In this document: positions 16,057 to 55,566 of the stretch, piece after piece | Numbering within the stretch: the first letter of the stretch is position 1 | Layout: each line of letters begins with the position of its first letter | NCBI GenBank assembly: GCA_963422645.2 | Contig: CAXXVO010000014.1 | Location: 288,001-352,000, forward strand | Direction: 5' to 3' | DNA from: Alphaproteobacteria bacterium | GTDB lineage: Bacteria > Pseudomonadota > Alphaproteobacteria > UBA828 | DNA: 64,000 nt | The notes under the pieces: generated by a model | The model's input: the letters and a program-made list of their open reading frames with translations, nothing else | The model's database searches: none | Told to the model about the DNA's origin: nothing | Translations under genes and position numbers: made by a program

Positions 16057-16719
16057 CAATCGTGACAGCTTTGTCTACGCGGTCTGGAACTCGTTCCAGC
16101 GTTTCACGACGAGGATGTTCTCGTCCATGATCGAGTTCCACACGGCGACCCGGCCCATGCGGTTCGCGAACGAGCCGCCGTCGCGGACGTGGCCGGGCTG
16201 CTCCATGACGTTGCCGAAGGGATCCTTGACCTCGCCTTCCGCCGGCTTGCCCTCGTACCAGTAATCCCACTCCCAGGGCTCCATGAACCCGCGCGAGTTC
16301 TCGGGCGTGCACATGTAGTAGCCCTGCTTGGAGAAGTAGGCGCCCGCCGGGCCCGAGTGGTACCAGTTGAAGTAGTCGTAGAGGGCGCCGAGCTTCTTGC
16401 CCTCGACGTGGCGCGGGATCATCGCGCCGAGCGCCCAGGCCCGGTAGCCTTCCTTGAGGTCGAGGTAGATGCAGGGCACGCCGCGTGCGCGCACCGCCGC
16501 CACCGCCGGCGACCACATGGACTGCAGCACCACCTCGCCAGAGGTCATCAGATTGACGGAATCGTTGAAGGTGCTCCAGAAGGCGCGGAAGTGCCCGTCC
16601 TTCTTGTAACTGCCCAGGTCGTCTGATTTGTCATTTTGGGCCAGTGGATTGAGGCGTTTCTCGTTCGGAGTTGGTGGAAAGGGCTTGACGGGAATTTCGG
16701 GAAATGACTCAACAACGAC

Positions 16720-18227
16720 ATGAGCAATCCCGAGTCGCCGCGCGGCCCTTCGACGGGAGCAGCGCCCGAAACGCCCGCGCAGAAGATCGCCCGCCTGGAG
16801 GAGGAGAACGCCCGGCTTCGGGAGGAAAATGCCTGGCTTCGGCAGCAGAACGCGCGGCTGGAAGAGCAAGTCGCGCGTCTCGTCGAGCGCATCGAGGAGT
16901 TGGAGCGCCGTCTCGGCCTCAACAGCGGCAACAGCGGCAAGCCGCCTTCGAGCGATGGGCTGAGGAAGCCGAATTCGAAGCGGCGAACCCGAAGCCTGCG
17001 CGGCAAATCGGGCCGCAAGCCCGGTGGCCAGCCCGGCCACAAGGGCAAGACGCTGCGCCGCGCCGATCACCCGGATCGGGTGAAGGATCACGTCCCGGCT
17101 TCCTGCAAGGGATGCGGTTCGCCGCTTTCGGACGCGGCCAGGGCGGGAACGCCCGTCGCCCGCCAGGTGTTCGATCTGCCCGAGCCGAGCCCCCTGGAGG
17201 TGACCGAGCACCGGGCGCATGCCAAGTGCTGCGGGCATTGCGGGACGGTGACCCGGGCGGCGTTCCCCGACGGGGTGTCGGCGCCGGTGCAGTACGGCCC
17301 GCGCATTGCCGGGGTGGCGGTCTACCTTCAGCACGCTCACTTCCTGCCGGAGGATCGGCTGTCGCAGGTGATGGCCGAGCTCTTCGGCGCGCCGGTGACG
17401 GCTGCGACGTTGGCGACGATGAGCGAGAGGGCGGCCGAGCGGCTGTGCGGGACGCGGCCTTGCACATACAGGACCTGGCGGCGGGCACGGCGCGGGTGAA
17501 ACACATGGACGAGACCGGCTTGCGGATCGGCGGTCAGACGCAGTGGCTTCATGTGATCTGCACGCCGCTGCTGGCGGCGTACCGGGTCAGCGGCAAGCGC
17601 GGCGCCCTGCTCTCGGGTGTCTCCGGCATCGTCGTGCACGATCACTGGAAGCCGTACTTCGCGATGGAAGGGGTGGAGCACGGCCTGTGCAACGCCCATC
17701 ACCTGCGGGAGTTGCAGGCGCTGGTGGACATCGAAGGGGAGGCTTGGGCCCGGCGGATGCAGCAGCTCCTGCGCCGAGCCAATCGCGCCGCCCGCATCGC
17801 GCTGGACAAGGATATCGCCGTTCCGGCGAGGCTTGTGGCGCTGATCGAGCGCCGATACGACGAGATCATCGCCGATGCGCTGGCCTTTCACGAGAGCCAA
17901 CCACCGTTCTCGCCTGGCAAGAGGAAGAAGCGCCGGAAGCGAAGGATCGGTCACAATCCGGCCTTGAGGCTGCGCGACCACAAATGCGCGGTGCTCCGGT
18001 TCCTGATCGACCTCGAGGTCGGGTTCACGAACAACGAGGCCGAGCGCGACCTTCGGATGATGAAGCTGCGCCAGAAGATCTCCGGGGGCTTCCGGTCCGC
18101 GCAGGGGGCCGAGAACTTCGCCATCCTGCGCAGCGTCATCACCACCGCCAGAAAGCAGGGCTGGAATATCATCGAAGCCCTGACCAGCCCATCGGATCGG
18201 CTCATCGCCACCGTCAAGTGCGCGTAA
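16720..18227 (+). pseudogene. IS66 transposase with a +2 frameshift near 17445
   Basis: Leucine zipper, NSGKPPSSDG, zinc finger, HMDETG, CNAHHLREL, TNNEAERDLR; the copy at 52472-53200 shows the intact reading. Confidence 0.88.
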
Positions 18228-18269
18228 GCTCACCTGGCACGGGTTCTCCAACAGCGGAGCCATTCTCAT

Positions 18270-22684: not shown

Positions 22685-23975
22685 GTAACTGCCCAGGTCG
22701 TCTGATTTGTCATTTTGGGCCAGTGGATTGAGGCGTTTCTCGTTCGGAGTTGGTGGAAAGGGCTTGACGGGAATTTCGGGAAATGACTCAACAACGACAT
22801 GAGCAATCCCGAGTCGCCGCGCGGCCCTTCGACGGGAGCAGCGCCCGAAACGCCCGCGCAGAAGATCGCCCGCCTGGAGGAGGAGAACGCCCGGCTTCGG
22901 GAGGAAAATGCCTGGCTTCGGCAGCAGAACGCGCGGCTGGAAGAGCAAGTCGCGCGTCTCGTCGAGCGCATCGAGGAGTTGGAGCGCCGTCTCGGCCTCA
23001 ACAGCGGCAACAGCGGCAAGCCGCCTTCGAGCGATGGGCTGAGGAAGCCGAATTCGAAGCGGCGAACCCGAAGCCTGCGCGGCAAATCGGGCCGCAAGCC
23101 CGGTGGCCAGCCCGGCCACAAGGGCAAGACGCTGCGCCGCGCCGATCACCCGGATCGGGTGAAGGATCACGTCCCGGCTTCCTGCAAGGGATGCGGTTCG
23201 CCGCTTTCGGACGCGGCCAGGGCGGGAACGCCCGTCGCCCGCCAGGTGTTCGATCTGCCCGAGCCGAGCCCCCTGGAGGTGACCGAGCACCGGGCGCATG
23301 CCAAGTGCTGCGGGCATTGCGGGACGGTGACCCGGGCGGCGTTCCCCGACGGGGTGTCGGCGCCGGTGCAGTACGGCCCGCGCATTGCCGGGGTGGCGGT
23401 CTACCTTCAGCACGCTCACTTCCTGCCGGAGGATCGGCTGTCGCAGGTGATGGCCGAGCTCTTCGGCGCGCCGGTGACGGCTGCGACGTTGGCGACGATG
23501 AGCGAGAGGGCGGCCGAGCGGCTTGCGGGACGCGGCCTTGCACATACAGGACCTGGCGGCGGGCACGGCGCGGGTGAAACACATGGACGAGACCGGCTTG
23601 CGGATCGGCGGTCAGACGCAGTGGCTTCATGTGATCTGCACGCCGCTGCTGGCGGCGTACCGGGTCAGCGGCAAGCGCGGCGCCCTGCTCTCGGGTGTCT
23701 CCGGCATCGTCGTGCACGATCACTGGAAGCCGTACTTCGCGATGGAAGGGGTGGAGCACGGCCTGTGCAACGCCCATCACCTGCGGGAGTTGCAGGCGCT
23801 GGTGGACATCGAAGGGGAGGCTTGGGCCCGGCGGATGCAGCAGCTCCTGCGCCGAGCCAATCGCGCCGCCCGCATCGCGCTGGACAAGGATATCGCCGTT
23901 CCGGCGAGGCTTGTGGCGCTGATCGAGCGCCGATACGACGAGATCATCGCCGATGCGCTGGCCTTTCACGAGAGC
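22685..23975 (+). mobile_element. IS66-A copy 2, truncated by IS21
   Basis: Left IR at 22685; matches copy 1 apart from an indel near 23522. Confidence 0.92.
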
Positions 23976-24177
23976 TGTCAATCGGCTTTCAATACTGACC
24001 CCCGATCGGCGTGCAAAATTGACCCCCCTGAGTGGCACGGCGGAGGTTGTCCCGGTAGCCAATAGGGGGGACCCGCGCGGCTTCGTGTGGCGCCCTGCGC
24101 TACGCGGAGCGAAGCCGCGTGGGGGGTCCCTGTTGGCCCACCGGGGCAACCGGGCCGCAAGGGAGGCCGGCGGCGGG

Positions 24178-27858: not shown

Positions 27859-28422
27859 TCAGTCGGGGTCCAGTTCGGAATCCCAGTAGAGGTAGTCGCC
27901 CCAGCTTTCGTGCAGGTAGCGGGGCGGGAAGCGCCGTCCCGCCTCGTGCAGGTCGTAGGCGCTGGGCGGCTTGGGCTTGCGCGCCGGTCGCATGCCGCAC
28001 TCCCGCGGCAGCCGGTTGCTCTTCGCGAGGTTACAGGCGCTGCAGGCGGCGACGACGTTGTCCCAGGTGGTGCGCCCACCGCGCGAGCGCGGCACCAGGT
28101 GGTCGAAGGTGAGGTCCTCCACCGGAAAGGGCGTCACGCAATACTGGCAGGAGAACGAATCGCGCAGGAAGACGTTGAACCGCGTGAAGGCGGGCCGGCG
28201 CGCGAGCGGGCGGTAGCGCTTGAGCGCGACCACGCTCGGCAGCCGGATCGCCGTGCTGGGCGAGCGGATCGCCCGGTCGTATTCCGAGAGGATGGTCACC
28301 CGGTCGAGGAACGCCGCCTTGATCGCATCCTGCCAGCCCCAGACCGAGAGCGGGAAGTAGCTGAGCGGCCGGTAGTCGGCGTTGAGCACGAGGGCTGGGC
28401 AGCTCTCCAAGGATGCTTGCAC
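27859..28422 (-). CDS. HNH endonuclease
   Basis: LVLNADYRPL, CQYC, TFDHLVPRSRGG, CSACN. Confidence 0.9.
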   Translation of the reverse strand: MQASLESCPALVLNADYRPLSYFPLSVWGWQDAIKAAFLDRVTILSEYDRAIRSPSTAIRLPSVVALKRYRPLARRPAFTRFNVFLRDSFSCQYCVTPFPVEDLTFDHLVPRSRGGRTTWDNVVAACSACNLAKSNRLPRECGMRPARKPKPPSAYDLHEAGRRFPPRYLHESWGDYLYWDSELDPD

Positions 28423-29161
28423 GGTTCCAGGCCCCCTCAACGCGGCTCCGGTGCGCCCACCAGCGGCCTAATCTCCGACGGCGCGCCAGATTTGCGGGCG
28501 CATCATGCCAAAGTGCGGGCGCAGCGCAAACCCGCAGCGGAGCAAAGGGGCAGGGCGTGATGCGACCCGTGGCGCCTGTCGGTGCCTATTCGACCACGAA
28601 TGTCGGCGAGAAGTCGGCGGGCGCGAGCGAAAGGCGCGTGTTGAACGAGTCGAGATTGGCTTGCTCCACGACGTGGATCAAAGGCCCGGCGTGCGGGTGC
28701 TCGAGCTTGCCTTCGAGAAACCGAACCGCCATCTCGATACCCATCCGGCCTTGCAGGGCGGGGAAATCGGTGGGCGCCGCGAGGATCTTGTCGCGCTTGA
28801 TGCCGCGATACACCGCATGCGTGAAGTAGTCCGCCAACACCCGGATCTGCCCGGTGAGGCCGCGCGCCCTGAGCAGGCTCACCGCGGCGCCCGCGGTGAC
28901 CGCGCTGCCCACGATGTAGTCGACATCGGGGCGTTCCTCCAGCGCCTCCTCGACTAGGATCAGCTGGATTTCGCGGCCGGTGTCGCCCCACTTCTTCACG
29001 ACGATGTCGACGGCGCTGCCCGCGAGCGCCTCGGTGAATCCCTCCTCGACAAAACAGTCATGGTCCCCGCGGTTCTGAGCCACCCCGTGGCATGAAACAG
29101 GAGCGGTTCGGCTGACGTTTTCCTTGCGCTTGCACCCATTTGCCGTGTCAGGATGGGTATT

Positions 29162-29344
29162 GGCGGAGGTGGGGACGTGTGAGCGTCGTTATATCGGTGA
29201 CGTAGTTCCCGATGACAAAACTGCTTCCGGCGGCCGGCTCCGCACCCCGTATTGTACCCGGCCCGTGGCCGTGGACGCGCGGCAAATTGCACCGCACCCG
29301 CTCGTCGGATGCGTGTTCTTCCGACCGCTGTCCCCGCCTCCACC
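29162..29344 (+). ncRNA. candidate IS110 bridge RNA
   Basis: Closed by stem 29162-29176/29330-29344; contains GATGACAAA/TATT (target-like) and GCGCGGCAA/TGTT (donor-like) segments, each pair separated by a hairpin. Confidence 0.7.
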
Positions 29345-29406
29345 GTGGCGATGCCACGGCGTGATCGTACGCCGCCGTGGCGAGAGCGCAAATGAGGAGG
29401 AAGGCG

Positions 29407-30657
29407 ATGAAGACGGAAGGCTTGCACGTCGTCCGGCCGCGCGCGGCGGGTCTGGACGTGCACAAGATGGAGATCACCGCGACGGTTCGCCTCTGTGAGG
29501 GCGAGGGTGAGCCGGTGGTGGAGACGCGCTGCTTCGGCACGCTGCCGAGCGGTCTGGAGGAGATGGTCGCGTGGCTGACCGGTCACGGCGTCGAGGCTGC
29601 GGTGATGGAAGGGACCGGGGTCTACTGGCAGGCGCCCTTCGCGGCCCTGGAGGCGGCCGGGCTCGAGGCGATCCTGGTGCATGCGCGTCAGGTGAAGCAG
29701 TTGAAGGGGCGCAAGACCGACGTGGCGGACAGCGTGTGGCTGGCCTGCGTGTGCCAGTTCGGGCTCTGCACGCCTTCCCACGTTCCGCCTGAGCCGTTCC
29801 GGGAGCTGCGCGCACTGAGCCGCCAGCGCCGCGTCCTGGTCAGGCAGCGCTCCGCCGTGCGCAACCGCGTGCAGAAGATCATCGACCGCGCCGGTGCGCG
29901 CATCGGCGGCATCCTCTCCGACGTCTTCGGCGTCAACGGCCGGAAGATCCTCGACGGCCTGGCGCAGGGGACGGCGCGCGAGGTCATCCTCGCCTCGCTC
30001 ACCAGCCACGTTGCGAACAAGCTGGAGGGGCTCGGCGAGGCGCTCACCCTGAGCCTGGGCGACAACGACCGCTTCATGCTCAACGACCTGCTGGAGGAGC
30101 ATGACGCGCTTGAGGCGCGCATCGCGTCCTACACCAGGAAGATCGACGGGCAGATGACACCGTGGGAGGAGCAGCTCCGTCTGCTGACCACCATCCCCGG
30201 CATCGACCGCACCGCCGCCTCGACCATCCTCATCGAGATCGGCCCCGACATCGGCGTGTTCGCCTCCAAGGAGCACTTCGCCGCCTGGGCCGGGCTCTGC
30301 CCCGGCAACAACGAGAGCGGGGGCAAGCGCCGCAACGCACGCACCCGCATGGGCTCCAAGACCCTGCGCGCCTGCCTCGTCGAGTGTGCCCACGGCGCGG
30401 CCCGAACCAAGGGGTGCCAGTTCGAGGCTCATCACCGCGCCCTCGCCGCCCGGCGCGGCTACAAGCGCGCCATCGTCGCCGGCGCTCACAAGATGCTGCG
30501 CATCATCTATGTGGTGCTCAAGACCGGCAGGCCCTACTACGACCGCACGGCCGACTACGACGCTCTGATGGTCAAGCGCAACGCTCCTCGGTGGATCCGC
30601 ATGCTCCGCCGCTACGGCTACATCGAGCCCGTAGGCGCGGAACTCAAGGCCGCCTGA
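29407..30657 (+). CDS. IS110 DEDD recombinase/transposase
   Basis: GLDVHK, MEGTG, KTDVAD (DEDD) and GLCPGNNESGGK serine motif; GAGGAGG RBS. Confidence 0.95.
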   Translation: MKTEGLHVVRPRAAGLDVHKMEITATVRLCEGEGEPVVETRCFGTLPSGLEEMVAWLTGHGVEAAVMEGTGVYWQAPFAALEAAGLEAILVHARQVKQLKGRKTDVADSVWLACVCQFGLCTPSHVPPEPFRELRALSRQRRVLVRQRSAVRNRVQKIIDRAGARIGGILSDVFGVNGRKILDGLAQGTAREVILASLTSHVANKLEGLGEALTLSLGDNDRFMLNDLLEEHDALEARIASYTRKIDGQMTPWEEQLRLLTTIPGIDRTAASTILIEIGPDIGVFASKEHFAAWAGLCPGNNESGGKRRNARTRMGSKTLRACLVECAHGAARTKGCQFEAHHRALAARRGYKRAIVAGAHKMLRIIYVVLKTGRPYYDRTADYDALMVKRNAPRWIRMLRRYGYIEPVGAELKAA

Positions 30658-31510
30658 GCGGCCCGCATCTCGTCAGCCGGCTACGCGGGACCGCTTCGGA
30701 CCACATCGGGGAAGTCCACCGCTCGTCTCCGCCGCGCCGACCCTGGCGGTCTCAGCCAACGCCGTGACCTCGGGGTTGGAGCGTCACCGCGCGTCCCTCG
30801 CCAGAATCTGTTTCACGGCAAGTAGGCCCACTGCGACTCCCGCGGGCCGGGGAACCACGCCACCTTGACCGGCGGCGTGCCGGCCGGATGGAGGTTGGCA
30901 AGGTAGGCTCCGGTCACTTCTCCCATCGTGACCCAGGAGACGGCGGCCTTGGCGCTGATGCCGGGGTCGGCGATGTCGTTGACCACGGCGAGCACCGGAA
31001 TCTTCTCGCTGATCGCGAGCACCGCCTCGGTCAGCCCGTCGAAGCTCACCGCGCCCAGCGCCAGGATGTCCGCGTCCTGGGCGCATTCGGTGATCTGGGC
31101 AATTTGGCGTTCGAGGTTGGGGTAGCCGCCCGCCTCGACCACGCGGAGCGCGACGCCGAGCCGCTTCGCCTCCTCGACCATGCCGTAGTTGACGCTCAGC
31201 CAGTACGAATCCTTGAGGTGAGGATAGGAGGCGCAGATGCGCCATTTCTGCGACGCCCGCTCGAGGGGGCGATAGGTGATGGTCGTCGTCGGGCTGCGGA
31301 AATCGAAGGGCGGCGACCAGACTTCGAGCGCCCACTCCGAGGGGGACGCAGTAGTCTCAACCGCTTGCTGGTCAGACCCGAGCGTCGGGCCTGCGGCCAG
31401 CACCAGGCTCGCGAGGAGACCAGGAATCAGTCTTGATAGGCGCCAAAGTCTCATGGCCGGCATGATGCGGCCGATTGCCTTTTGAATCCAACCGGTGTTC
31501 TAATTTCACG

Positions 31511-34492
31511 ATGTTCGGCCGCTTCGGCATCGCAAGTCGCCTCTTCGCCTCGTTTGCGGGGGTGGCGGCTCTCTCGATCGCAGCCGGGATCATCGGCTGG
31601 GTCGTTCTGCGCAACGTCGATACCGCGCAGACCACCATCGTGGACGAGGCCATGCCGGCGATCGCCGAGGGGCGGATCATCGCCGAGACCTCGACACAGA
31701 TCGCGGCGCACGGCGCCCGGCTCGCCACTGCCGAGAGCCAGGCGGAGCGGCGGTCTCAGGCCTACTTCCTGCGGTCCACGACCGATCTGCTCTCTGCCCG
31801 CCTCGATGCGTTGGAGGGGTACGGCTTCCCCGAACAGGAAGTCGCCGAGATTCGGGGCGTGGTGTCGGCGCTCGCCGCGAACCTGGACCGGCAGGACGAG
31901 ATCGTCGCCGCGCGGATCGGGATGAATGACGTGCTGGCCGCTTCGGTCGCGCGCACGCTGGACGTGGCCGGCGAACTCTCCGCGCTCTCCGAGACTCTCA
32001 CCTCCAACGCGGCGTCGGGGGCGACGGTCGTCATCTCCAATCTCTACGAGCTCGCCGAAGATACGGCGCGCCTGGCGGCCATGCTCGATGCCTTCGACCG
32101 GCTGGTCGAGGCGGATCTCTTCTTGCTGGAGCGGATGTTCGAGCTCCGGATGCGTGCCTCCGAGCAGGGGCTGCTGCTGAACCAGCTCGGCCGCGCGCGG
32201 GACGCCGGCGAGATCGCGTGGATCGAGGAGCGCTACAGCGGCAACCTCCGCATCCTCGTGCGCCGGGTGGCCCTGATCGACGACCCGATCCGCCGGGAGC
32301 AGGGGGAGGGGCTGGTCGCCGCGCTGTCGTCCGACGGGCCGCCCGGCACCTTGGGCCTCTTCGACCAGCGCCGCCGGACGCTGGACCTCGATGCGGCGCT
32401 CGCCGCCTTGGCAGACGACAACCGCGCGTTGACCGACCGGATGAACGAGGGAGTCGCCGCGGTCGTCTCCCGCTCTCAGCAGATCGCCGCCGACGCGGCC
32501 GAGGCGGCGGACAGCGCGGTTGAGTTCGGCGGTCTCACCGTCCTGCTCCAGATCGTGCTTTTTATTGCCATCGCGGGCGCCATCGCCTGGCTCTACGTGC
32601 ATCGCAACCTCGTCCACCGACTCAAGGCGCTGCATCGGGTCATGCAGAGCCTTGCGGCGGGGCGACTGGACGTGGCGGTGCCGACCGGGGGGCGGGACGA
32701 GCTCTCCGACATGGCCGATACCCTGCGCGTCTTCCGCGACCAGGGGAACGTCAAGCAGGAGCTCGAGGAGGAGCGCGAACGGACCAATGCCGAGCTGCGG
32801 CAGCAAAGGGAGGAGTTGGAGCGCCATAAGGAGGAGCTGGAAAGGCTGGTCGCGGAACGAACCGCGCAGTTGACCGAAGCCAATGCGCGGCTGGTCGAGG
32901 AGGTGCAGAACCACGACCGCGCCCGTGCCCACGCCGAGCAGGCGAGCCGCGCCAAGTCGGAGTTCCTCGCCACCATGAGCCACGAGATCCGCACACCGAT
33001 GAACGGGGTTCTCGGCATGCTGCGGCTCATGGCCGACGGCCCTTTGAACGAGCGGCAGCGCCAGCGGGTCATGCGCTCGTCGAGCGAAATCCTGCTCGGC
33101 ATTCTCAACGACATCCTCGACTACTCGCGGGTCGAATCCGGCGAGATCGAGGTCGAGAGCGCGGTCTTCGACCTGCACGAGCTGGTCGAGGACATCGTGG
33201 TGCTGATGCAGGGGCGCGCCAGGGAGAAGAACCTCGCCCTGTACCTGGCGATTGCGAAGGGTGTGCCGGCGGCGGTGACCGGCGATCGCCAGAAGCTGAG
33301 CCAGGTGCTGCTAAACCTGCTCGGCAACGGCATCAAGTTCACGGACCGGGGCGCGGTCACGCTCGAGGTCGCGAAGGGAGCGGAGCCCGATGCGATCCGC
33401 TTGGCCGTCCGGGACACCGGCCCCGGCATCGCCGAGGCCGACCTCGCTCACCTCTTCGAGCCCTTCTATCAGGCGGCCGCATCGCGCCGGCACGGGCAGC
33501 AGACCGGCACCGGGCTCGGCTTGGCCATTTCCAAGCGTCTGAGCACGGCGATGGGGGGGCACATCGCGGTGGAGACGGAGCCGGGGGACGGCAGCTGCTT
33601 CTCCGTGACGCTGCCGCTGCCGCAGGGCGAAGCCGTCGCCCTGCCGCCGGTCGAGGCGATGCCGCACAGGGTGTCGGGGCCGGAGCGGGCGCTGGATGTC
33701 CTCATCGTCGAGGACAACGTGGTGAACGCCATGGTGGTCGAGGCCTTCATCGGCCGGATGGGTCACACGCCGCTCGTCGCGCCCACCGCGGAAGAGGGGC
33801 TCGAGCTCCTGGAGGAGCAGGCCTTCGATCTCGTTCTCATGGACATCAGCCTTCCGGGCATCGACGGCATCGAGGCGACGCAGCGCATCCGGGCCCACGC
33901 CGATGCGGCGATCCGCTCGCTGCCGGTCATCGCCATGTCGGCCCACGTGTTCGACAACGAGGTCGCCCAGCACCTGCAGTCCGGGATGGATGCCTTCATC
34001 GGCAAGCCCATCGCACCCGACGGCCTGGCGCAAACCATCACCAGCGTGCTCGGGCGCACGCCCGGCGAGCGTGCGGCCATTGACGGCGGCCGTGCGGCGA
34101 GCGGAGGGGAGTCGATTATCGACCCCGCCGTTCTCGCGCAGGATCGTGCGGTGCTGGGGGCGGAGCGCGGCACCCTGATGGTCGATACCTTTATCGAGAC
34201 GGCGCCGGCGCAGATCGACGGCATCAGAGAGGCGCTGGCCGACGGGCGGTGCCAGAGGGCGGCGGACCTCGCCCACGCGCTGAGAGGAGCCGCCGGCAGC
34301 CTCGGTCTGCGCCGCCTCGCGGACCGCTGCGGCGTGCTCGAAGCGCGCGCCCGCACCCCGGAGGCGGTGGCAGTTGCCGAGGAGCTGGACCGTTTATTCG
34401 ACGAATCGCGCGAGGCGCTGCTGACGCTCTGGGCGGGCCTCGAAACAGCCGAGCGTGAGGGTCAGGTGGTGACCGCCGGGGTGAACAGGTAA
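31511..34492 (+). CDS. torS: TorS-like hybrid sensor histidine kinase
   Basis: Periplasmic domain, HAMP, MSHEIRTP, NGIKFT, receiver LMDISLP, HPt AHALRGAA; flanked by torT and torR. Confidence 0.85.
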   Translation: MFGRFGIASRLFASFAGVAALSIAAGIIGWVVLRNVDTAQTTIVDEAMPAIAEGRIIAETSTQIAAHGARLATAESQAERRSQAYFLRSTTDLLSARLDALEGYGFPEQEVAEIRGVVSALAANLDRQDEIVAARIGMNDVLAASVARTLDVAGELSALSETLTSNAASGATVVISNLYELAEDTARLAAMLDAFDRLVEADLFLLERMFELRMRASEQGLLLNQLGRARDAGEIAWIEERYSGNLRILVRRVALIDDPIRREQGEGLVAALSSDGPPGTLGLFDQRRRTLDLDAALAALADDNRALTDRMNEGVAAVVSRSQQIAADAAEAADSAVEFGGLTVLLQIVLFIAIAGAIAWLYVHRNLVHRLKALHRVMQSLAAGRLDVAVPTGGRDELSDMADTLRVFRDQGNVKQELEEERERTNAELRQQREELERHKEELERLVAERTAQLTEANARLVEEVQNHDRARAHAEQASRAKSEFLATMSHEIRTPMNGVLGMLRLMADGPLNERQRQRVMRSSSEILLGILNDILDYSRVESGEIEVESAVFDLHELVEDIVVLMQGRAREKNLALYLAIAKGVPAAVTGDRQKLSQVLLNLLGNGIKFTDRGAVTLEVAKGAEPDAIRLAVRDTGPGIAEADLAHLFEPFYQAAASRRHGQQTGTGLGLAISKRLSTAMGGHIAVETEPGDGSCFSVTLPLPQGEAVALPPVEAMPHRVSGPERALDVLIVEDNVVNAMVVEAFIGRMGHTPLVAPTAEEGLELLEEQAFDLVLMDISLPGIDGIEATQRIRAHADAAIRSLPVIAMSAHVFDNEVAQHLQSGMDAFIGKPIAPDGLAQTITSVLGRTPGERAAIDGGRAASGGESIIDPAVLAQDRAVLGAERGTLMVDTFIETAPAQIDGIREALADGRCQRAADLAHALRGAAGSLGLRRLADRCGVLEARARTPEAVAVAEELDRLFDESREALLTLWAGLETAEREGQVVTAGVNR

Positions 34493-37315: not shown

Positions 37316-38036
37316 GTAACTGCCCAGGTCGTCTGATTTGTCATTTTGGGCCAGTGGATTGAGGCGTTTCTCGTTCGGAGTTGGTGGAAAGGGCTTGACG
37401 GGAATTTCGGGAAATGACTCAACAACGACATGAGCAATCCCGAGTCGCCGCGCGGCCCTTCGACGGGAGCAGCGCCCGAAACGCCCGCGCAGAAGATCGC
37501 CCGCCTGGAGGAGGAGAACGCCCGGCTTCGGGAGGAAAATGCCTGGCTTCGGCAGCAGAACGCGCGGCTGGAAGAGCAAGTCGCGCGTCTCGTCGAGCGC
37601 ATCGAGGAGTTGGAGCGCCGTCTCGGCCTCAACAGCGGCAACAGCGGCAAGCCGCCTTCGAGCGATGGGCTGAGGAAGCCGAATTCGAAGCGGCGAACCC
37701 GAAGCCTGCGCGGCAAATCGGGCCGCAAGCCCGGTGGCCAGCCCGGCCACAAGGGCAAGACGCTGCGCCGCGCCGATCACCCGGATCGGGTGAAGGATCA
37801 CGTCCCGGCTTCCTGCAAGGGATGCGGTTCGCCGCTTTCGGACGCGGCCAGGGCGGGAACGCCCGTCGCCCGCCAGGTGTTCGATCTGCCCGAGCCGAGC
37901 CCCCTGGAGGTGACCGAGCACCGGGCGCATGCCAAGTGCTGCGGGCATTGCGGGACGGTGACCCGGGCGGCGTTCCCCGACGGGGTGTCGGCGCCGGTGC
38001 AGTACGGCCCGCGCATTGCCGGGGTGGCGGTCTACC
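37316..38036 (+). mobile_element. IS66-A copy 3 (5' part), truncated by IS21
   Basis: Left IR at 37316, matches copy 1. Confidence 0.92.
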
Positions 38037-38127
38037 TGTCAATCGGCTTTCAATACTGACCCCCGATCGGCGTGCAAAATTGACCCCCCTGAGTGGCAAC
38101 CGGGCCGCAAGGGAGGCCGGCGGCGGG

Positions 38128-38856
38128 TCAGGAGCGGTTCTTGAAGCGCCAGCTCTCGTTGCCGGTCTCGATGATCTCGCAATGATGGGTGAGGCGATCG
38201 AGCAGCGCTGTGGTCATCTTGGGGTCGCCGAAGACGGATGGCCATTCGCCGAAGGCGAGGTTTGTGGTGATGACGATCGAGGTGCGCTCGTAGAGCCGGC
38301 TCATCAGATGGAAGAGCAGCTGCCCACCGGCCTGGGCGAAGGGCAGGTAGCCGAGCTCGTCGAGGATGACGAAGTCGCGGCGGACGAGCTGGTCTGCAGT
38401 GCGGCCCTGGCGTCCGGCGCGAAGCTCGGCCTCGAGGAGGTTGACCAGGTCGACGACGTTGTAGCACCGGCCGCGCGCGCCCTTGCGGATGCAGGACCGC
38501 GCGATGGCGACGGCGAGATGGGTCTTGCCGGTACCGGTGCCGCCGACCAGCACGATGTTGCGTTTGCCCTCGAGGAAGCCGCCGCCGGCGAGCTCCTGGA
38601 TCAGGGGCTCGTTGACCGGCGAGGCGGCGAAGTCGAAGTCGGCCAGCTCCTTGACCGTCGGCAGCTTGGCGGAGGCCATCTGGTACTTGATCGAGCGGGC
38701 CCTCTTGTCGGCGATCTCGACCTGCAGCAGCGTACCGATGATCTGTTGCACCGGATGGCGGCGCTTGAGCCCGTCGGCAAGGATGTCGTCGTAAGCGGCG
38801 CGCATACCTGCGAGCTTCAGCTGGGTCATCATCTCCAGCACATCATGACGCTCCAT
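38128..38856 (-). CDS. istB: IS21 helper ATPase IstB
   Basis: Identical protein to 24178..24906. Confidence 0.95.
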
Positions 38857-47727: not shown

Positions 47728-48077
47728 GGCGATACCCCGCATGAATTTTAGTAACTGCCCAGGTACCCCCTCTCTCTTATGGAACAAGCCAGTTCCTTTT
47801 GCGTCAACGCCCCCACGCCGCGGGGGTGCCTACTCTCTTGAGCGCGAGAGGATGATGAACGCCGCGTCGCGAACAAGATGAGAGGACAGCGATACTCAGG
47901 ATGAGCCGGAGAAGTTCAGGAGCGCAGTATAGGGATCAGCTGCATCGGTTCCGGGTGCGCCAGGATTTGCAGGATGTTCCAGCCTTGCTTTCGAGCGGTG
48001 ACGATGACGCTGCGCATTCCGGCGAAGTTGCAGGCGCCTTGCAGGGAGCGGAAGCCGCCTGAGATCTTCTCATGCAC

Positions 48078-49847
48078 TTGCCGTGAAACAGATTCTGGCG
48101 AGGGACGCGCGGTGACGCTCCAACCCCGAGGTCACGGCGTTGGCTGAGACCGCCAGGGTCGGCGCGGCGGAGACGAGCGGTGGACTTCCCCGATGTGGTC
48201 CGAAGCGGTCCCGCGTAGCCGGCTGACGAGATGCGGGCCGCTCAGGCGGCCTTGAGTTCCGCGCCTACGGGCTCGATGTAGCCGTAGCGGCGGAGCATGC
48301 GGATCCACCGAGGAGCGTTGCGCTTGACCATCAGAGCGTCGTAGTCGGCCGTGCGGTCGTAGTAGGGCCTGCCGGTCTTGAGCACCACATAGATGATGCG
48401 CAGCATCTTGTGAGCGCCGGCGACGATGGCGCGCTTGTAGCCGCGCCGGGCGGCGAGGGCGCGGTGATGAGCCTCGAACTGGCACCCCTTGGTTCGGGCC
48501 GCGCCGTGGGCACACTCGACGAGGCAGGCGCGCAGGGTCTTGGAGCCCATGCGGGTGCGTGCGTTGCGGCGCTTGCCCCCGCTCTCGTTGTTGCCGGGGC
48601 AGAGCCCGGCCCAGGCGGCGAAGTGCTCCTTGGAGGCGAACACGCCGATGTCGGGGCCGATCTCGATGAGGATGGTCGAGGCGGCGGTGCGGTCGATGCC
48701 GGGGATGGTGGTCAGCAGACGGAGCTGCTCCTCCCACGGTGTCATCTGCCCGTCGATCTTCCTGGTGTAGGACGCGATGCGCGCCTCAAGCGCGTCATGC
48801 TCCTCCAGCAGGTCGTTGAGCATGAAGCGGTCGTTGTCGCCCAGGCTCAGGGTGAGCGCCTCGCCGAGCCCCTCCAGCTTGTTCGCAACGTGGCTGGTGA
48901 GCGAGGCGAGGATGACCTCGCGCGCCGTCCCCTGCGCCAGGCCGTCGAGGATCTTCCGGCCGTTGACGCCGAAGACGTCGGAGAGGATGCCGCCGATGCG
49001 CGCACCGGCGCGGTCGATGATCTTCTGCACGCGGTTGCGCACGGCGGAGCGCTGCCTGACCAGGACGCGGCGCTGGCGGCTCAGTGCGCGCAGCTCCCGG
49101 AACGGCTCAGGCGGAACGTGGGAAGGCGTGCAGAGCCCGAACTGGCACACGCAGGCCAGCCACACGCTGTCCGCCACGTCGGTCTTGCGCCCCTTCAACT
49201 GCTTCACCTGACGCGCATGCACCAGGATCGCCTCGAGCCCGGCCGCCTCCAGGGCCGCGAAGGGCGCCTGCCAGTAGACCCCGGTCCCTTCCATCACCGC
49301 AGCCTCGACGCCGTGACCGGTCAGCCACGCGACCATCTCCTCCAGACCGCTCGGCAGCGTGCCGAAGCAGCGCGTCTCCACCACCGGCTCACCCTCGCCC
49401 TCACAGAGGCGAACCGTCGCGGTGATCTCCATCTTGTGCACGTCCAGACCCGCCGCGCGCGGCCGGACGACGTGCAAGCCTTCCGTCTTCATCGCCTTCC
49501 TCCTCATTTGCGCTCTCGCCACGGCGGCGTACGATCACGCCGTGGCATCGCCACGGTGGAGGCGGGGACAGCGGTCGGAAGAACACGCATCCGACGAGCG
49601 GGTGCGGTGCAATTTGCCGCGCGTCCACGGCCACGGGCCGGGTACAATACGGGGTGCGGAGCCGGCCGCCGGAAGCAGTTTTGTCATCGGGAACTACGTC
49701 ACCGATATAACGACGCTCACACGTCCCCACCTCCGCCAATACCCATCCTGACACGGCAAATGGGTGCAAGCGCAAGGAAAACGTCAGCCGAACCGCTCCT
49801 GTTTCATGCCACGGGGTGGCTCAGAACCGCGGGGACCATGACTGTTT
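48078..49847 (-). mobile_element. IS110 family element, copy 2
   Basis: Reverse complement of copy 1; the empty target CATGCACTTTGTTCATACGG is visible at 53521-53540. Confidence 0.95.
48242..49492 (-). CDS. IS110 DEDD recombinase/transposase
   Basis: Identical protein to 29407..30657. Confidence 0.95.
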   Translation of the reverse strand: MKTEGLHVVRPRAAGLDVHKMEITATVRLCEGEGEPVVETRCFGTLPSGLEEMVAWLTGHGVEAAVMEGTGVYWQAPFAALEAAGLEAILVHARQVKQLKGRKTDVADSVWLACVCQFGLCTPSHVPPEPFRELRALSRQRRVLVRQRSAVRNRVQKIIDRAGARIGGILSDVFGVNGRKILDGLAQGTAREVILASLTSHVANKLEGLGEALTLSLGDNDRFMLNDLLEEHDALEARIASYTRKIDGQMTPWEEQLRLLTTIPGIDRTAASTILIEIGPDIGVFASKEHFAAWAGLCPGNNESGGKRRNARTRMGSKTLRACLVECAHGAARTKGCQFEAHHRALAARRGYKRAIVAGAHKMLRIIYVVLKTGRPYYDRTADYDALMVKRNAPRWIRMLRRYGYIEPVGAELKAA

Positions 49848-49955
49848 TGTTCATACGGATGTCACGCTCCGCCTCGTTATTCGTGAACGGCGTGCGCAGG
49901 TCGGTGAGGAAGCGCAGGCAGCCCTCCTTATGCTTTTGAAGGCGGCGCGCGAGGT

Positions 49956-52471
49956 TCAGACTTCCTGACCTCGTGATGCTGGCTGTTCTGGGCAGCGTGC
50001 CGGGAACTCCTTGAATTCTGATACATTTCGGTTGTTTCAGGCGGTTTTTCGCTGGGTGTCGCGCCCGAGGTCTGATATTATAATTTGATACCAATTGCAC
50101 GGTCTCAACCATGCCCAGTACCCTCCCAATGTGCCCTCCAGAGGCGGTCTCGATCGGCAACAGCTGCTTCGCCGTCCTGATCTCGGACGACACCTTCACC
50201 TACTTTTCCAACCTCATTCCCTTTGACAGCCACGCCGCCGATGACCGCACGGCCATGCTCTTGCGGATCGGCCGCCTCGCGGCGATCAGCGCGGTCTCGC
50301 CGCAGGAACTGGCTGACGCTTTCGCTGTCTCGCGCGCGACGGTGCAGCGCGCACGACGGCGCTACCTGGCCGAGGGCGAAGCGGGGTTCATGAAGCCCCG
50401 GCGCGGTCGCGGGCCGTCGGTGTTCACTCCGGAGTTGGCGGAGAAGGCGACGGCGTTGCTGGCATCGGGCCTGAGCGGCTCTGCGGCGGCCCGGGTTCTC
50501 GGCGTGTCAGCGCCATCGGTCAACAAGTGGCGCCGTCAGGGACTGATCGGCAACACGGAGGCGGATGGGGAGCCCGGACGCTCAGCGCTGGCTGCGCCGC
50601 CTGACGCGGGTGCGGCTCCTGAAGGCCGTGTCGATGAAGAGAGTACCGGTGCCCCGGGGCCGGAGACGGCGCCGGGGCTGGAAGCGCAGCCGCAAACGGA
50701 TCGCAGCGCGCGCGATCGGCGGGACCGGCAGGCGCCGATGGGGCGTGCGACTTGCGATGTTCCGGCTCGGGTTCTGGCCAGTTGTGGACAGGCGGGGCCG
50801 GTCGAACCGCAGTTCGCCGCCGCCGCCCGCGGTGTCCGCTTCGGCGGCGTGCTCGCCGCCCTGCCGGCCCTGCTGAAGGAAGGTCTTCTCTCCGAGACCG
50901 GTCTCCTGCCATTGCTGCCGAAGGGCTATTACGGCTTGCCTACGATCCTGCTCTTCCTGGCCTTCATGACCTTGGCGCGGGTGCGCAACCCCGAGAGCCT
51001 GCGCTACCAGGCGCCGGGCGAATGGGGCGCCATTCTCGGCCTCGATCGCTGCCCCGAGGTCAAGACGCTGCGCCGCAAGATCGCTCTCATCGCCGACGAC
51101 GAGGCCGGCGTGCGGGCGTGGCAGCTCGCCCTTGCCAGGCGCTGGCAAGGCGCCGACGAGCCGGAGCTCTGGGCGACGCTGGCCATCGACGGGCACGTCA
51201 AGGTCTACTCCGGCCGCAAGGGGCGCTTGCCCAAGCACTTCGTCTCGCGCGAGAAGCTGTGCCTGCCGGCGAGCGCCAGCTACTGGATCAACGCTCTGGG
51301 CGGCAAGCCGCTGCTCTGTCTGCACAAGCCGCTGGACCCGAAGATGGTCGCGGCCATCGAAGCCGACGTGGTGCCGGCGCTGCAGGAGCTTGGGATCGTT
51401 GGCGCCGGGGCGCCGGACCTGACCGCCGAGCATCCCGGCCAGCCGGCGCTCACCCTGGTCTTCGACCGCGAGGGCTGGAGCCCGGATCTGTTCCGCCGGC
51501 TGGCGAGGCGCGGCGTCGCCTGCCTGACCTGGCACAAGAACTTCAGGGGCGAGGACTGGCCGGCCGAGGACTTCGGCGCGATGACCGTTCCCATTCACGG
51601 ACCGGCGGCGGACGGCAGCGCCACCATGCGGCTGGCTGAGAAGCCGGTGACGTTGCCGAACGGCTTCAGGGTGCGCCAGATCCGCCGCCTGCTCGACAAC
51701 GGCCGTCAGGTGCCGCTGATCACCACCGATCCGCACAAGCCGATGGCTGAGGTTGCGGGCGCCATGTTCTCGCGCTGGTCGCAGGAGAACTTCTTCAAGT
51801 ACATGCGTGACGAGTTCAATCTCGACGCCCTGCCGACCCACGAGCTCGAGCCTCTCGATCCCGCCGCCATGGTCGTCAACCCGCTGCGGCGGGCCTATGA
51901 CAAGGCAATCCATCGCCTCGACCGCCAGCTTGGCCGCCTGCGCAACCGCATCGCCGACACGGCCCGGAAGAAGCAGCCGACGGCGGAACTCAGGAGGGAA
52001 GTCAGGGACCTCCAGGATGTCCGCGACATCGTCAGGGCCAGCCGCAGGGAGACGCCCAAGCACTGCCGGGCCGGCGACCTCGACGAAGCCGAGCAGCTCG
52101 ATGCCTTGCCCGCGCGCGAGCGCCTCCTCCTCGACGTCATCCGGATGATCGCCTACCGCGCCGAAACCCGCATGATGCTTCCCGTCATGCAGGCGCAGGG
52201 CCACAAGCCCCATCCCCGGAAACTGCTTCAAGCGCTGCTCACCGCCGATGCCGACATCCTGCCGGATCCTGGCAATGGCCTCCTGCGGGTCCACATTCTT
52301 GGCCTCGCAAACGACGCCTGCGACCGTTGGATCGATGCGGTTCTGAGCGACCTGAACGCCACCGAAACGGTCTTCCCCGGCACCCGTCTGCGCATAGTCT
52401 ACGACATCGACGGGGCCTCGGAATCCGCGCGGCTCGTGTCACCTAAAATCAGCAGAGGTCAGGAAGTCTGA
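49956..52471 (+). mobile_element. unclassified IS (2516 bp) with 17-bp terminal IRs
   Basis: TCAGACTTCCTGACCTC...GAGGTCAGGAAGTCTGA; further partial copies at 7518, 21446 and 62989. Confidence 0.9.
50111..52471 (+). CDS. 786-aa putative DDE transposase (IS4-superfamily-like)
   Basis: Two N-terminal HTHs, IDGH, FDREG, RWSQENFFK; the stop codon is the last 3 bp of the IR. Confidence 0.85.
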   Translation: MPSTLPMCPPEAVSIGNSCFAVLISDDTFTYFSNLIPFDSHAADDRTAMLLRIGRLAAISAVSPQELADAFAVSRATVQRARRRYLAEGEAGFMKPRRGRGPSVFTPELAEKATALLASGLSGSAAARVLGVSAPSVNKWRRQGLIGNTEADGEPGRSALAAPPDAGAAPEGRVDEESTGAPGPETAPGLEAQPQTDRSARDRRDRQAPMGRATCDVPARVLASCGQAGPVEPQFAAAARGVRFGGVLAALPALLKEGLLSETGLLPLLPKGYYGLPTILLFLAFMTLARVRNPESLRYQAPGEWGAILGLDRCPEVKTLRRKIALIADDEAGVRAWQLALARRWQGADEPELWATLAIDGHVKVYSGRKGRLPKHFVSREKLCLPASASYWINALGGKPLLCLHKPLDPKMVAAIEADVVPALQELGIVGAGAPDLTAEHPGQPALTLVFDREGWSPDLFRRLARRGVACLTWHKNFRGEDWPAEDFGAMTVPIHGPAADGSATMRLAEKPVTLPNGFRVRQIRRLLDNGRQVPLITTDPHKPMAEVAGAMFSRWSQENFFKYMRDEFNLDALPTHELEPLDPAAMVVNPLRRAYDKAIHRLDRQLGRLRNRIADTARKKQPTAELRREVRDLQDVRDIVRASRRETPKHCRAGDLDEAEQLDALPARERLLLDVIRMIAYRAETRMMLPVMQAQGHKPHPRKLLQALLTADADILPDPGNGLLRVHILGLANDACDRWIDAVLSDLNATETVFPGTRLRIVYDIDGASESARLVSPKISRGQEV

Positions 52472-53200
52472 TCCTTGTCCAGCGCGATGCGGGCGGCGCG
52501 ATTGGCTCGGCGCAGGAGCTGCTGCATCCGCCGGGCCCAAGCCTCCCCTTCGATGTCCACCAGCGCCTGCAACTCCCGCAGGTGATGGGCGTTGCACAGG
52601 CCGTGCTCCACCCCTTCCATCGCGAAGTACGGCTTCCAGTGATCGTGCACGACGATGCCGGAGACACCCGAGAGCAGGGCGCCGCGCTTGCCGCTGACCC
52701 GGTACGCCGCCAGCAGCGGCGTGCAGATCACATGAAGCCACTGCGTCTGACCGCCGATCCGCAAGCCGGTCTCGTCCATGTGTTTCACCCGCGCCGTGCC
52801 CGCCGCCAGGTCCTGTATGTGCAAGGCCGCGTCCCGCAGCCGCTCGGCCGCCCTCTCGCTCATCGTCGCCAACGTCGCAGCCGTCACCGGCGCGCCGAAG
52901 AGCTCGGCCATCACCTGCGACAGCCGATCCTCCGGCAGGAAGTGAGCGTGCTGAAGGTAGACCGCCACCCCGGCAATGCGCGGGCCGTACTGCACCGGCG
53001 CCGACACCCCGTCGGGGAACGCCGCCCGGGTCACCGTCCCGCAATGCCCGCAGCACTTGGCATGCGCCCGGTGCTCGGTCACCTCCAGGGGGCTCGGCTC
53101 GGGCAGATCGAACACCTGGCGGGCGACGGGCGTTCCCGCCCTGGCCGCGTCCGAAAGCGGCGAACCGCATCCCTTGCAGGAAGCCGGGACGTGATCCTTC
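52472..53200 (-). mobile_element. internal fragment of IS66-A (copy 4)
   Basis: Matches IS66-A with an intact frame across the site frameshifted in the other copies. Confidence 0.9.
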
Positions 53201-53365
53201 GTAACTGCCCAGGTACCCCCTCTCTCTTATGGAACAAGCCAGTTCCTTTTGCGTCAACGCCCCCACGCCGCGGGGGTGCCTACTCTCTTGAGCGCGAGAG
53301 GATGATGAACGCCGCGTCGCGAACAAGATGAGAGGACAGCGATACTCAGGATGAGCCGGAGAAGT

Positions 53366-54904: not shown

Positions 54905-55566
54905 GTGTCTTCGGCCTCGACGGCCATCATGGCGGCGAGCACGGCGAGGCGTTCGCCCGGCGGCAAGGCCTGGTAGCGCCGGCCCCAGTTGGCTGCCTTG
55001 CGCTTGATGCGCTGGCGGTCGGTGAAGTTCCGGCCTGCGTGGCTGGCCCAATGCATCCGGTCGGGGGCGTAGTTGAACCAGACGACCTCGGTTCGCACCA
55101 GACCCTGGGTCGTGACCTGCAGCGCCAGCCGGCGCCATCCCGCCAGCACCTCGTCATAGAGCGCCGACGGATGGCCCGAGATCATGACCTGGCAGGGCAG
55201 AGCCTTGAGCAGCGCGAGAAGCGCGACGTGGCCGGCCTCCTCGTACTCGAAGCGGTAGCGCTGCGCCGAGCGGCGGGTCGCGTGCAGATAGGGCGGATCG
55301 CTGTAAACCAGCTCCGGGCCCAGGAACGGGAACGAGGCCAGGAAGTCATGGGCACAGCCGTGAACCAGATCGACCGGGTAGTCGCAGACGAAGGCCTCGA
55401 GCGCCTGCGCATCGCGGTCGATGCCGATCGAACGCACGGCCGGCGGCTTGCGCTTCATCAGCGCCCCGCCCCCAAGGTGGCTTTCGATGTAGACGGAGTG
55501 CGGCGGCATCAGCGCAATCAGCGCTTGGCACAGACCTGCTGTCGCCTTCGAGCCGAAATACCCCAT
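54901..55566 (-). CDS. Dam-like (alpha class) N6-adenine DNA methyltransferase
   Basis: YFGSK (motif X), YIESHLGGGA (motif I), YSDPPY (motif IV), MISG. Confidence 0.85.
   Translation of the reverse strand: MGYFGSKATAGLCQALIALMPPHSVYIESHLGGGALMKRKPPAVRSIGIDRDAQALEAFVCDYPVDLVHGCAHDFLASFPFLGPELVYSDPPYLHATRRSAQRYRFEYEEAGHVALLALLKALPCQVMISGHPSALYDEVLAGWRRLALQVTTQGLVRTEVVWFNYAPDRMHWASHAGRNFTDRQRIKRKAANWGRRYQALPPGERLAVLAAMMAVEAEDT

Follow-up and report, generated by a model that had tools for sequence, protein, structure and literature searches.

The DNA analysed here, called the window below, is a stretch of 64,000 nucleotides (nt) from an Alphaproteobacteria bacterium of GTDB lineage UBA828 (assembly GCA_963422645.2, contig CAXXVO010000014.1, positions 288,001 to 352,000). 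On its plus strand, between AA cores at 29052-29053 and 30820-30821, a copy of an IS110-family insertion sequence (IS) occupies 29054-30819, with a mobile unit of 1,768 bp. Its recombinase gene (29407-30657, plus strand) encodes 416 amino acids (aa) from an ATG at 29407 and leaves non-coding ends of 353 nt on the left (29054-29406) and 162 nt on the right (30658-30819). A second copy, inverted and identical, lies at 48080-49845 on the minus strand, within a copy of an IS66-family transposase gene. The left non-coding end holds a folded unit of about 183 nt at 29162-29344 (plus strand), repeated at 49555-49737 (minus strand) in the second copy. This unit very probably encodes the bridge RNA, a bispecific guide RNA, of the element whose recombinase gene follows it, as an earlier reading of the bare sequence (the original prediction) had proposed. 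We observed the element with its ends, target logo and AA core, a conserved fold in the left end, and three guide segments that covary with their matching DNA.

The insertion sequence, its AA core and its targets

The recombinase carries the Pfam domains DEDD_Tnp_IS110 (PF01548, 1.9e-23) and Transposase_20 (PF02371, 4.6e-21) and shows distant but significant similarity to the recombinases of known structure from IS621 (E = 6.3e-16) and ISCro4 (E = 2.6e-15), with the KTDxxD and ESG motifs aligned. The two copies in the window form inverted repeat arms (29049-30823 and 48076-49850) that are 100% identical over 1,775 nt. The original prediction was right about this identical second copy and its mirrored RNA at 49555-49737, but two is an undercount: the genome holds 48 copies at 37 sites, including tandem arrays of up to five. 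All but one variant copy (47/48) are letter-identical over 1,766 nt, and these 47 exact copies support the proposal that the element was recently active. Every copy has the left junction ...ACAAAA-CAGTCA and the right junction CACGGC-AA.

The composition of the core was read from an empty target site. An intact paralogue of the gene struck by copy 2 (repeat families D7 and D11) carries AAA at 53528-53530 of the minus strand and reads ATGAAC-AAA-GTGCATG, whereas the occupied site reads ATGAAC-AAAA-CAG...GGC-AA-GTGCATG, so that the insertion is exactly 1,768 bp long and duplicates nothing. Because target and donor each contribute three A's, and four are found at the left junction and two at the right, the only possible split is ...ACA-AA-N for the target and ...GGC-AA-ACAG for the donor. 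Copy 1 interrupts a minus-strand periplasmic-binding-protein gene, whose N-terminal fragment (30813-31463) matches Pfam Peripla_BP_1/4, and by our reading by eye the frame of the split gene is restored only with AAA in the target. Eleven tandem junctions in the genome read GGC-AAA-CAG (6) or GGC-AAAA-CAG (5), and the AA-core split accounts for both, since insertion at a resident left junction yields the former and insertion at a right junction (GGCA-AA) the latter. Empty site, tandem junctions and reading frame thus confirm, for this element, the AA core of the original prediction, shared by target and donor, and an insertion without target duplication; the cores of orthologues were inferred by alignment.

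For the target logo, the 48 copies were merged to 37 sites and then to 33 distinct flanks, four sites with identical flanks being dropped. Position -4 is G in 17 flanks, A in 8 and C in 6, and the next three positions are A (29), C (33) and A (32), followed by the two core positions (A in 33 and 32). To the right of the core, position 10 is mostly A (24 flanks) with G in another 8, T stands at position 11 in 14/33 (binomial P = 3.6e-4) and a purine at position 12 in 23/33 (P = 0.018). About 6-7 target bases are specified in all, and the genome contains 987 ACAAAR sites.

The tandem arrays are head-to-tail runs of 2-5 copies with a period of 1,768 or 1,769 bp (G000:C11:48115-56954; C10:420315-425617, minus-strand scale; C16:27179-32480; C8:169704-173237; C8:727930-731464; C5 minus 186476-190010). 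At three loci (C19, C8 and C10) the same flanking DNA holds one, two or three copies of the element, so either copy number differs between paralogous sites or the assembly collapsed copies.

Near its ends the element carries a short subterminal inverted repeat, with a left copy, TGAAACAG, at 29093-29100 (plus strand), 40 nt inside the left end, and a right copy, CTGTTTCA, at 30808-30815 (plus strand), ending 4 nt from the right end. This repeat of 6-9 bp (left-end positions 36-47 against the right end) is the longest inverted repeat between the left and right ends in 18 of 22 elements. It shows matched changes at both ends, and its left copy lies 35-41 nt inside the element.

A conserved RNA fold in the left end

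Relatives of the element came from a scan of species genomes (57 loci, 42-97% identity) and a metagenome scan (17 loci). The alignment of their left ends to the window extends from the IS tip as far as the start codon, and relatives with 37-97% identical transposases retain a folded RNA of about 183 nt at the same place. We aligned 26 distinct RNAs (alignment A2), leaving out identical copies and four loci (L028, L036, L037 and L068) with truncated or altered left ends or an insertion in the guide region, and derived a consensus fold with RNAalifold. Standard pairs fill 96.0% of the 1,025 cells of this fold, compared to 38-51% when partners are slid by 1-3 columns; double changes occur at 14 of 40 pairs (78 cells), and shuffled alignments reached four of our measures in 0/500 cases and the fifth in 2/500. 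The structure was derived from the alignment on which it was tested, which somewhat favours the fold; the double changes, including 15 at a single pair of helix Pa and 11 at a single pair of helix Pb, are independent of that bias.

The whole unit is closed end to end by a stem of GGCGGAGGTGGGGAC (29162-29176, plus strand) with GTCCCCGCCTCCACC (29330-29344), comprising 13 Watson-Crick and 2 G-U pairs as counted by eye. This stem had been part of the original prediction and is borne out by covariation at 29165-29172/29334-29341, where helix 1 has 7 pairs, 4 of them with changes on both sides, and 94.4% of cells paired. Inside it, helix Pa (29181-29185, plus strand, with 29222-29226; helix 2) closes the target module, with 96.9% of cells paired and double changes concentrated at column pairs 22:72 (15) and 21:74 (9), and the hairpin P1 (29195-29211, plus strand; helix 3) stands between the two target guides, 99.0% paired with one-sided variation only. 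The donor module is closed by the long-range helix Pb (29228-29237, plus strand, with 29321-29330), in which helix 4 is 89.6% paired and has 3 pairs with double changes (11 at 77:192) and helix 5 is invariant; in five sequences, again by eye, a local hairpin is possible as an alternative to part of Pb. Hairpin P3 (29253-29277, plus strand; helix 6, 98.7% paired, one double-change pair) lies directly 5' of the left donor guide, and hairpin P4 (29293-29313, plus strand; helix 7, 94.4%, four double-change pairs) separates that guide from the candidate right donor guide. Consensus fold and Pfam matches together support the predicted arrangement of a structured RNA in the left non-coding end of an IS110-family element, with the target module 5' of the donor module. 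The local hairpin that had been drawn within the first module did not hold, as its bases are mostly engaged in other helices (29222-29226 with 29181-29185, and 29228-29237 with 29321-29330). A stem of 29238-29244 with 29288-29290, analogous to Pa, was also considered and showed no covariation by eye in the 26-sequence alignment.

A covariance model built on the consensus fold, R1, scores 172.3 bits at 29163-29344 and at 49555-49736, finds weaker relatives down to about 42% protein identity, and marks every copy for genome annotation. Run against 151 genomes sampled from the organism's own class, R1 matched only the genome under study. A protein search of 401 genomes of the phylum returned six at E <= 1e-80, including that genome; among the other five, 40-44% identical, three have weak R1 matches and were used (L105, L106 and L111) and two have none (L107 and L108). 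The best match in a plasmid protein search was 45% identical, and the only labels there, 'IS110 family transposase', are uninformative for subgrouping.

Two observations concern the left end beyond the conserved fold. The stretch 29345-29406 holds about 45 nt of additional sequence, present also in the closest relatives, in which two small hairpins can be drawn (GUGGCGAUGCCAC and GGCGUGAUCGUACGCC); these are missing in relatives that are 60-63% identical and might be a processing or translation signal. An Arenicellales metagenome-assembled genome (MAG) contains a short derivative (L069:2400-3141) with an RNA-bearing left end (R1, 78.5 bits), recombinase remnants and the right end TTTCACGGC-AA, inserted in another, shortened copy; it may be a non-autonomous element that keeps its guide RNA.

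Just upstream of the fold lies a putative -10-like hexamer, CAGGAT (29149-29154, plus strand). All relatives compared have a counterpart (GAGAAT, CACAAT or CAGAAT) that precedes the closing stem by 4-8 nt. Of 24 sequencing runs considered, 5 are on record as RNA; the 4 RNA runs examined gave only contigs of relatives, mostly 90-95% alike. Contigs of X15, X18 and X19 cover parts of 29054-29368, and X16 has no depth over 29054-29407. RNA libraries can hold DNA, so these contigs show neither transcription nor its absence. One contig of the marine metatranscriptome X15 (record 1) joins 30821 through 164 diverged letters to 29218; it represents a relative's right-end-left-end (RE-LE) junction, formed in either a circle or a tandem copy. 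We infer that the RNA is produced, that it associates with the recombinase and that it guides recombination.

Guide segments and their DNA partners

Covariation between RNA and DNA was scanned by sliding a 12-nt window along the aligned left ends and comparing the longest RNA-DNA match to 400 permutations of the DNA among RNA types. The partners of each element were its left flank (T_L), right flank (T_R), right end (D_L) and left end (D_R); loci lacking a recognisable junction were dropped, leaving 8-22 RNA types per window. All strings quoted in the original prediction stand where it placed them (GATGACAAA at 29211-29219, TATT at 29250-29253, GCGCGGCAA at 29277-29285 and TGTT at 29314-29317), and the complementarities it gave are correct for this element: GACAAA equals left flank plus AA, CGGCAA equals right end plus AA, and TGTT reverse-complements the AACA of the RE-LE junction.

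The left target guide gives the strongest signal. Its 9-nt string, GATGACAAA (29211-29219, plus strand), has GACA plus AA (29214-29219) as its effective bases and continues into an extension, AC, at 29220-29221. Same-sense matching to T_L peaks at 29211-29222 (z = 10.35, 0/400), and the next best window (z = 2.65) overlaps this peak. Among the 24 RNA types with a recognisable left junction, all 24 share an exact string of 5-10 nt between guide and left junction, and in 18 the string is at least 8 nt long. It crosses the A-run into the first bases of the IS, which are AC in 21 types, TC in 1 and CG in 2. The specificity is short, with flank positions -5 to -7 matching the guide in only 4, 2 and 2 of the 33 sites; effectively the guide consists of 4-5 bases plus AA, and about 4 of its 7 non-core bases seem to be read. 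Since the left target guide equals the integrated left junction, a resident left junction would be a perfect target, which can explain the tandem arrays; the same match may also serve excision.

Self-adjacent copies also occur in distant relatives. L106 and L111 (G332 contigs; recombinases 42-43% identical) lie directly behind another copy, with the RE-LE junction CATGTT-AA-CG. The left target guide of L106, CCUGUU-AA, is nearly the same as its own left donor guide, AAUGUU-AA, which points to built-in self-targeting.

The left donor guide, GCGCGGCAA (29277-29285, plus strand; the feature runs to 29287), reads in the same sense as the IS right end, CACGGC, followed by AA, and the bases AU that follow it are the commonest bases at target positions 10-11. 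Same-sense matching to D_L peaks at 29271-29288 (z = 2.97 and 3.40, 1/400 each) in a test of low power, as the donor arm varies little. Across 27 guide-string types, with donor ends CGGC, CAGC, CAAC, CGGT and TGTT, the guides mostly match, and L052 and L047 are off by one base. Both left guides of the original prediction are thereby upheld, and we consider it very likely that the RNA is a bridge RNA with its left target guide at 29211-29219 and its left donor guide at 29277-29285.

The right target guide appears to lie elsewhere than first proposed. Complementarity to T_R peaks at 29181-29198 (z = 4.43 for 29181-29192 and 3.71 for 29187-29198, 0/400 each), and a focused test at 29183-29194 was reached by 0/5,000 permutations with Watson-Crick pairs only and by 62/5,000 with G-U pairs allowed. 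The peak contains UCGUUAU (29186-29192, plus strand), which is single-stranded and 5' of hairpin P1. Examples of RNA and complementary flank are CCGCAU/ATGCGG (L039), GAAGGU/ACCTTC (L072), GCGGU/ACCGC (L071) and UCCUUU/AAAGGA (L021); in the two cases whose flank begins with a base other than A, the second core A is the partner of the final RNA base. Because orthologues carry their right-flank complement at 29186-29192, homology places the guide of this element there as well. By contrast, the segment UAUU (29250-29253, plus strand), the right target guide of the original prediction, is variable among orthologues and shows no covariation with the right flank: windows at 29241-29258 gave z = -0.72 and -0.21 (304 and 233 of 400), and focused tests at the site were reached by 4,403 and 1,998 of 5,000 permutations. 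The guide-DNA covariation expected across orthologues is present for the two left guides, where it far exceeds permutation, and absent at 29250-29253, with the right-flank signal found elsewhere. We regard a right target guide at about 29186-29192, rather than at 29250-29253, as reasonably likely.

Orthologues in a Pseudomonadales MAG (L039-L050 and L054) and in Alphaproteobacteria MAGs (L020-L034) have repeated flanks resembling repetitive extragenic palindromic (REP) sequences, for example ...GGTGAG-AA(A)-TGCGGGCTAG. Two or three A's stand at the right junction there, which suggests that one RNA tolerates displacement of the A-run by a single base.

The right donor guide is the least certain of the four. 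The candidate UGUU (29314-29317, plus strand) pairs 4/4 with A9-A10-C11-A12 of the RE-LE junction, as first proposed, although it does not covary with its partner (D_R complement at 29307-29324: z = -0.38 and 1.15, 255 and 57 of 400). At this site 12 of the 26 RNAs have GUU, 9 GUC and 5 GA[C/U], and in 4 of those 5 there is no matching donor change; one orthologue, L070, whose IS starts with TCT instead of ACA, carries AGAT at the candidate guide, opposite ATCT. Three other placements, tried by eye, fit some orthologues only and were dropped: A2 columns 101-106, directly 5' of P3, read as the reverse complement of donor positions 10-15; the 4-mer beside CCGA (Pb'); and a bulged GUU-C-UU. Column-wise and sliding scans gave no peak for the donor right arm. 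That 29314-29317 is the right donor guide is quite possible, if short of an even chance.

These data bear on an IS621-like layout, in which each module would consist of guide, local hairpin and guide, with right guides UAUU (29250-29253) and UGUU (29314-29317). UAUU can pair with A9-R10-T11-R12 and so fits the target logo, UGUU pairs fully with AACA, the donor order of left guide, P4 and 29314-29317 is that of IS621 in the available text of PMC11208158, and AGAT in L070 faces a donor right arm that starts with TCT. However, the windows at 29241-29258 are silent on the right flank, U29253 is part of helix P3, and the supposed hairpin at 29222-29249 pairs elsewhere with compensatory changes. The logo does not separate the two sites, as the U-A-U at 29190-29192, where orthologues carry their right-flank complement, fits the R-T-R at target positions 10-12 as well as does the UAU of 29250-29253. 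Four of the five sequences with A at the third position of the right donor guide also have no matching donor change. We consider the IS621-like layout unlikely. Less likely still is that the region serves the transposase gene only as a structured 5' leader or as several sites acting at the DNA level, the matches being fossils of junctions recognised by protein alone. The left target guide with its extension is indeed a literal copy of the left junction, transcription is only presumed, the strict scan giving no promoter in 29000-29450 and the RNA libraries giving only contigs of relatives, and DNA sites of the protein-recognised type do exist, as the inverted repeat conserved at the two ends shows. 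Yet the guide-like strings change with the flanks of each element while the surrounding helices keep pairing through double changes, and one segment is complementary rather than identical to its DNA partner, which a fossil copy leaves unexplained. Both branches of the family that have been studied experimentally also need such an RNA, as far as the available texts of PMC11208160 and PMC11187229 describe it.

Several points weigh against a bridge RNA with the guides favoured here. The orthologues are related, so that label permutations overstate their independence, and the ends of orthologous elements were set by motif and not by empty sites. The right-flank signal is modest and weakens once wobble pairs are allowed (62/5,000), the RNA type of this element has best Watson-Crick runs of only 2-4 nt in 7 flanks, the register of the guide against the core is ambiguous where the target has AAA, and a second peak of T_R complementarity lies at 29157-29168 (z = 2.87, 1/400). 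No RNA segment covaries with the donor right arm, the best window (29379-29390; z = 2.08, 11/400) falling outside the RNA. Single-sequence folding is no better than that of shuffled sequences (z = -0.65 and 0.03), the left end has no match in Rfam 15, and the sole Rfam 15 match at E <= 1 within 28000-32000 is P10, at 22.1 bits (cut-off 37) inside the transposase gene (tnp). A strict scan for sigma-70 promoters and terminators over 29000-29450 gave no hits, and only parts of the region are covered, by RNA-library contigs of relatives 90-99% similar, in libraries of a kind that can hold DNA.

Under a bridge RNA with these guides, the RNA would be closed by its end-to-end stem and hold two modules, the target module formed through 29181-29185/29222-29226 and the donor module through 29228-29237/29321-29330. 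The target module would present the right target guide, P1 and then GACA-AA (29214-29219), in the sense of left arm plus core, which would pair with the target's bottom strand, the next bases, AC, copying the first bases of the IS. In the donor module, P3 would be followed by CGCGGC-AA (29278-29285), in the sense of the IS right end plus core, and after P4 UGUU (29314-29317) may pair with the start of the IS. By homology with IS621, a complex of recombinase and RNA would then recombine the junction of the 1,768-bp circle (...CACGGC-AA-ACAG...) with targets that read [G>A,C]ACA-AA-[A/G][T][R], the exchange falling at the AA common to both and producing no duplication.

Surroundings, known systems and meaning

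The window is a dense patch of nested mobile elements, with 12 direct and 11 inverted repeat families. Several copies of IS66-family elements lie at 16606-18230, 22685-24040, 37316-38400, 47748-48077 with 49846-49956 (the copy struck by the IS110-family element) and 52471-55138, with Pfam DDE_Tnp_IS66 matches on 16704-18227 and 53366-55138, and a Transposase_29 gene occupies 50111-52471. The periplasmic-binding-protein gene split by copy 1 (30813-34492 region) stands head to head with an open frame of 1,005 aa (31475-34492) whose translation reads like a putative hybrid sensor kinase. Together they look like a sensor system of the TorT/TorS type, which we presume was inactivated by the insertion of copy 1.

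The comparisons that follow extend as far as the available portions of the cited articles. Durrant et al. (2024, PMC11208160) predicted bridge RNAs of varied fold for 85.7% of elements in the IS110 group and 93.0% in the IS1111 group, and a recent catalogue holds 86 bridge-RNA covariance models covering 32,190 loci (bioRxiv 10.64898/2026.10.21.760802), so that such an RNA is to be expected here. Many folds in that catalogue deviate from IS621 and still covary with target and donor, using 12-40 programmable bases in total; the present RNA, at a rough count of about 20, would be near the low end, and its fold may already be among the published models. The account of these folds is silent on the order of the guides.

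In the published scheme (PMC11208160, PMC11208158), a left guide reads in the same sense as the left arm and core, and a right guide is the complement of the core and right arm. The present element resembles IS621 (Durrant 2024, PMC11208160; Hiraizumi 2024, PMC11208158) in having an RNA in the left end, upstream of a recombinase with DEDD and Tnp domains, a target module before the donor module, left guides with the sense of left arm plus core, a 2-nt core common to target and donor, and conservative insertion. It differs in its core (AA instead of CT), in the number of non-core bases read by the left target guide (about 4 compared to 7), in its end-to-end closing stem, and in a donor module that is a multi-helix junction (P3, P4) where IS621 has a simple internal loop; donor-binding bases within a multi-loop are described for many IS1111 members (Durrant et al., PMC11208160). 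The recombinase is also longer, at 416 aa compared to 328 residues in the solved IS621 chain. The proposed right target guide stands 5' of the left target guide, whereas in IS621 it stands 3'. In IS621, handshake guides stand beside the right guides, each a dinucleotide placed after the guide and fitting the other of the two DNA partners (PMC11208158); here the bases after the proposed right target guide (AU; AA in relatives) are, by eye, not complementary to the donor left arm, and the handshake-like bases are found beside the left target guide, running into donor right-arm sequence. The -10-like box, in a further difference from IS621, lies about 100 nt inside the left end, so that a promoter there would not have to be rebuilt at the circle junction.

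A right-flank complement 5' of the left target guide is shared with the seekRNAs of IS1111-type elements (ISEc11, ISPa11 and ISKpn4; PMC11187229). Unlike these, the present element has its non-coding region upstream and not downstream of tnp, a transposase of 416 aa compared to 330-350 aa, and an inverted repeat of 6-9 bp, with the right copy 4 nt from the end and the left copy 35-41 nt inside, compared to 11-13-bp repeats set 7 and 3 bp in from the ends. With the seekRNA of ISEc21, of the IS110 type, it shares an upstream non-coding region, RNA matches to both target strands and natural reprogramming among relatives, but in ISEc21 the bottom-strand match comes first and the transposase cluster measures 345-385 aa (PMC11187229). 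The order of guides divides these groups, the complement of the top strand coming first in IS1111 seekRNAs and second in ISEc21 (Siddiquee et al., 2024, PMC11187229). Transposases of 395-455 aa are assigned there to the subgroup that contains IS110 itself, for which the available part of that article names no studied RNA, and a search of the open full-text literature found no description of a right-guide-first order in an IS110-type bridge RNA.

The element may accordingly represent a distinct bridge-RNA layout in the branch of IS110-type elements with transposases of about 400 aa, a suggestion we make tentatively and would not yet favour. It would combine a left-end RNA, a target module mirroring that of IS621 (right guide, hairpin, left guide), handshake-like bases on the bottom-strand guide, and self-adjacent re-insertion that builds tandem arrays. 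If true, the mirrored layout predicts that the bottom strands, and not the top strands, are exchanged first. The relatives amount to a natural series of reprogramming, with at least 24 distinct RNA types and matched flanks, in which each base changed in the left target guide has its counterpart in the insertion sites. With its short AA-core target, its tandem arrays and its 47 identical copies, the element might reveal how the length of a guide balances specificity against spread. Guide order and the continuation of the left target guide into donor sequence, two possible departures from IS621, would if real matter for the sequence in which strands are exchanged and for the design rules of bridge editors.

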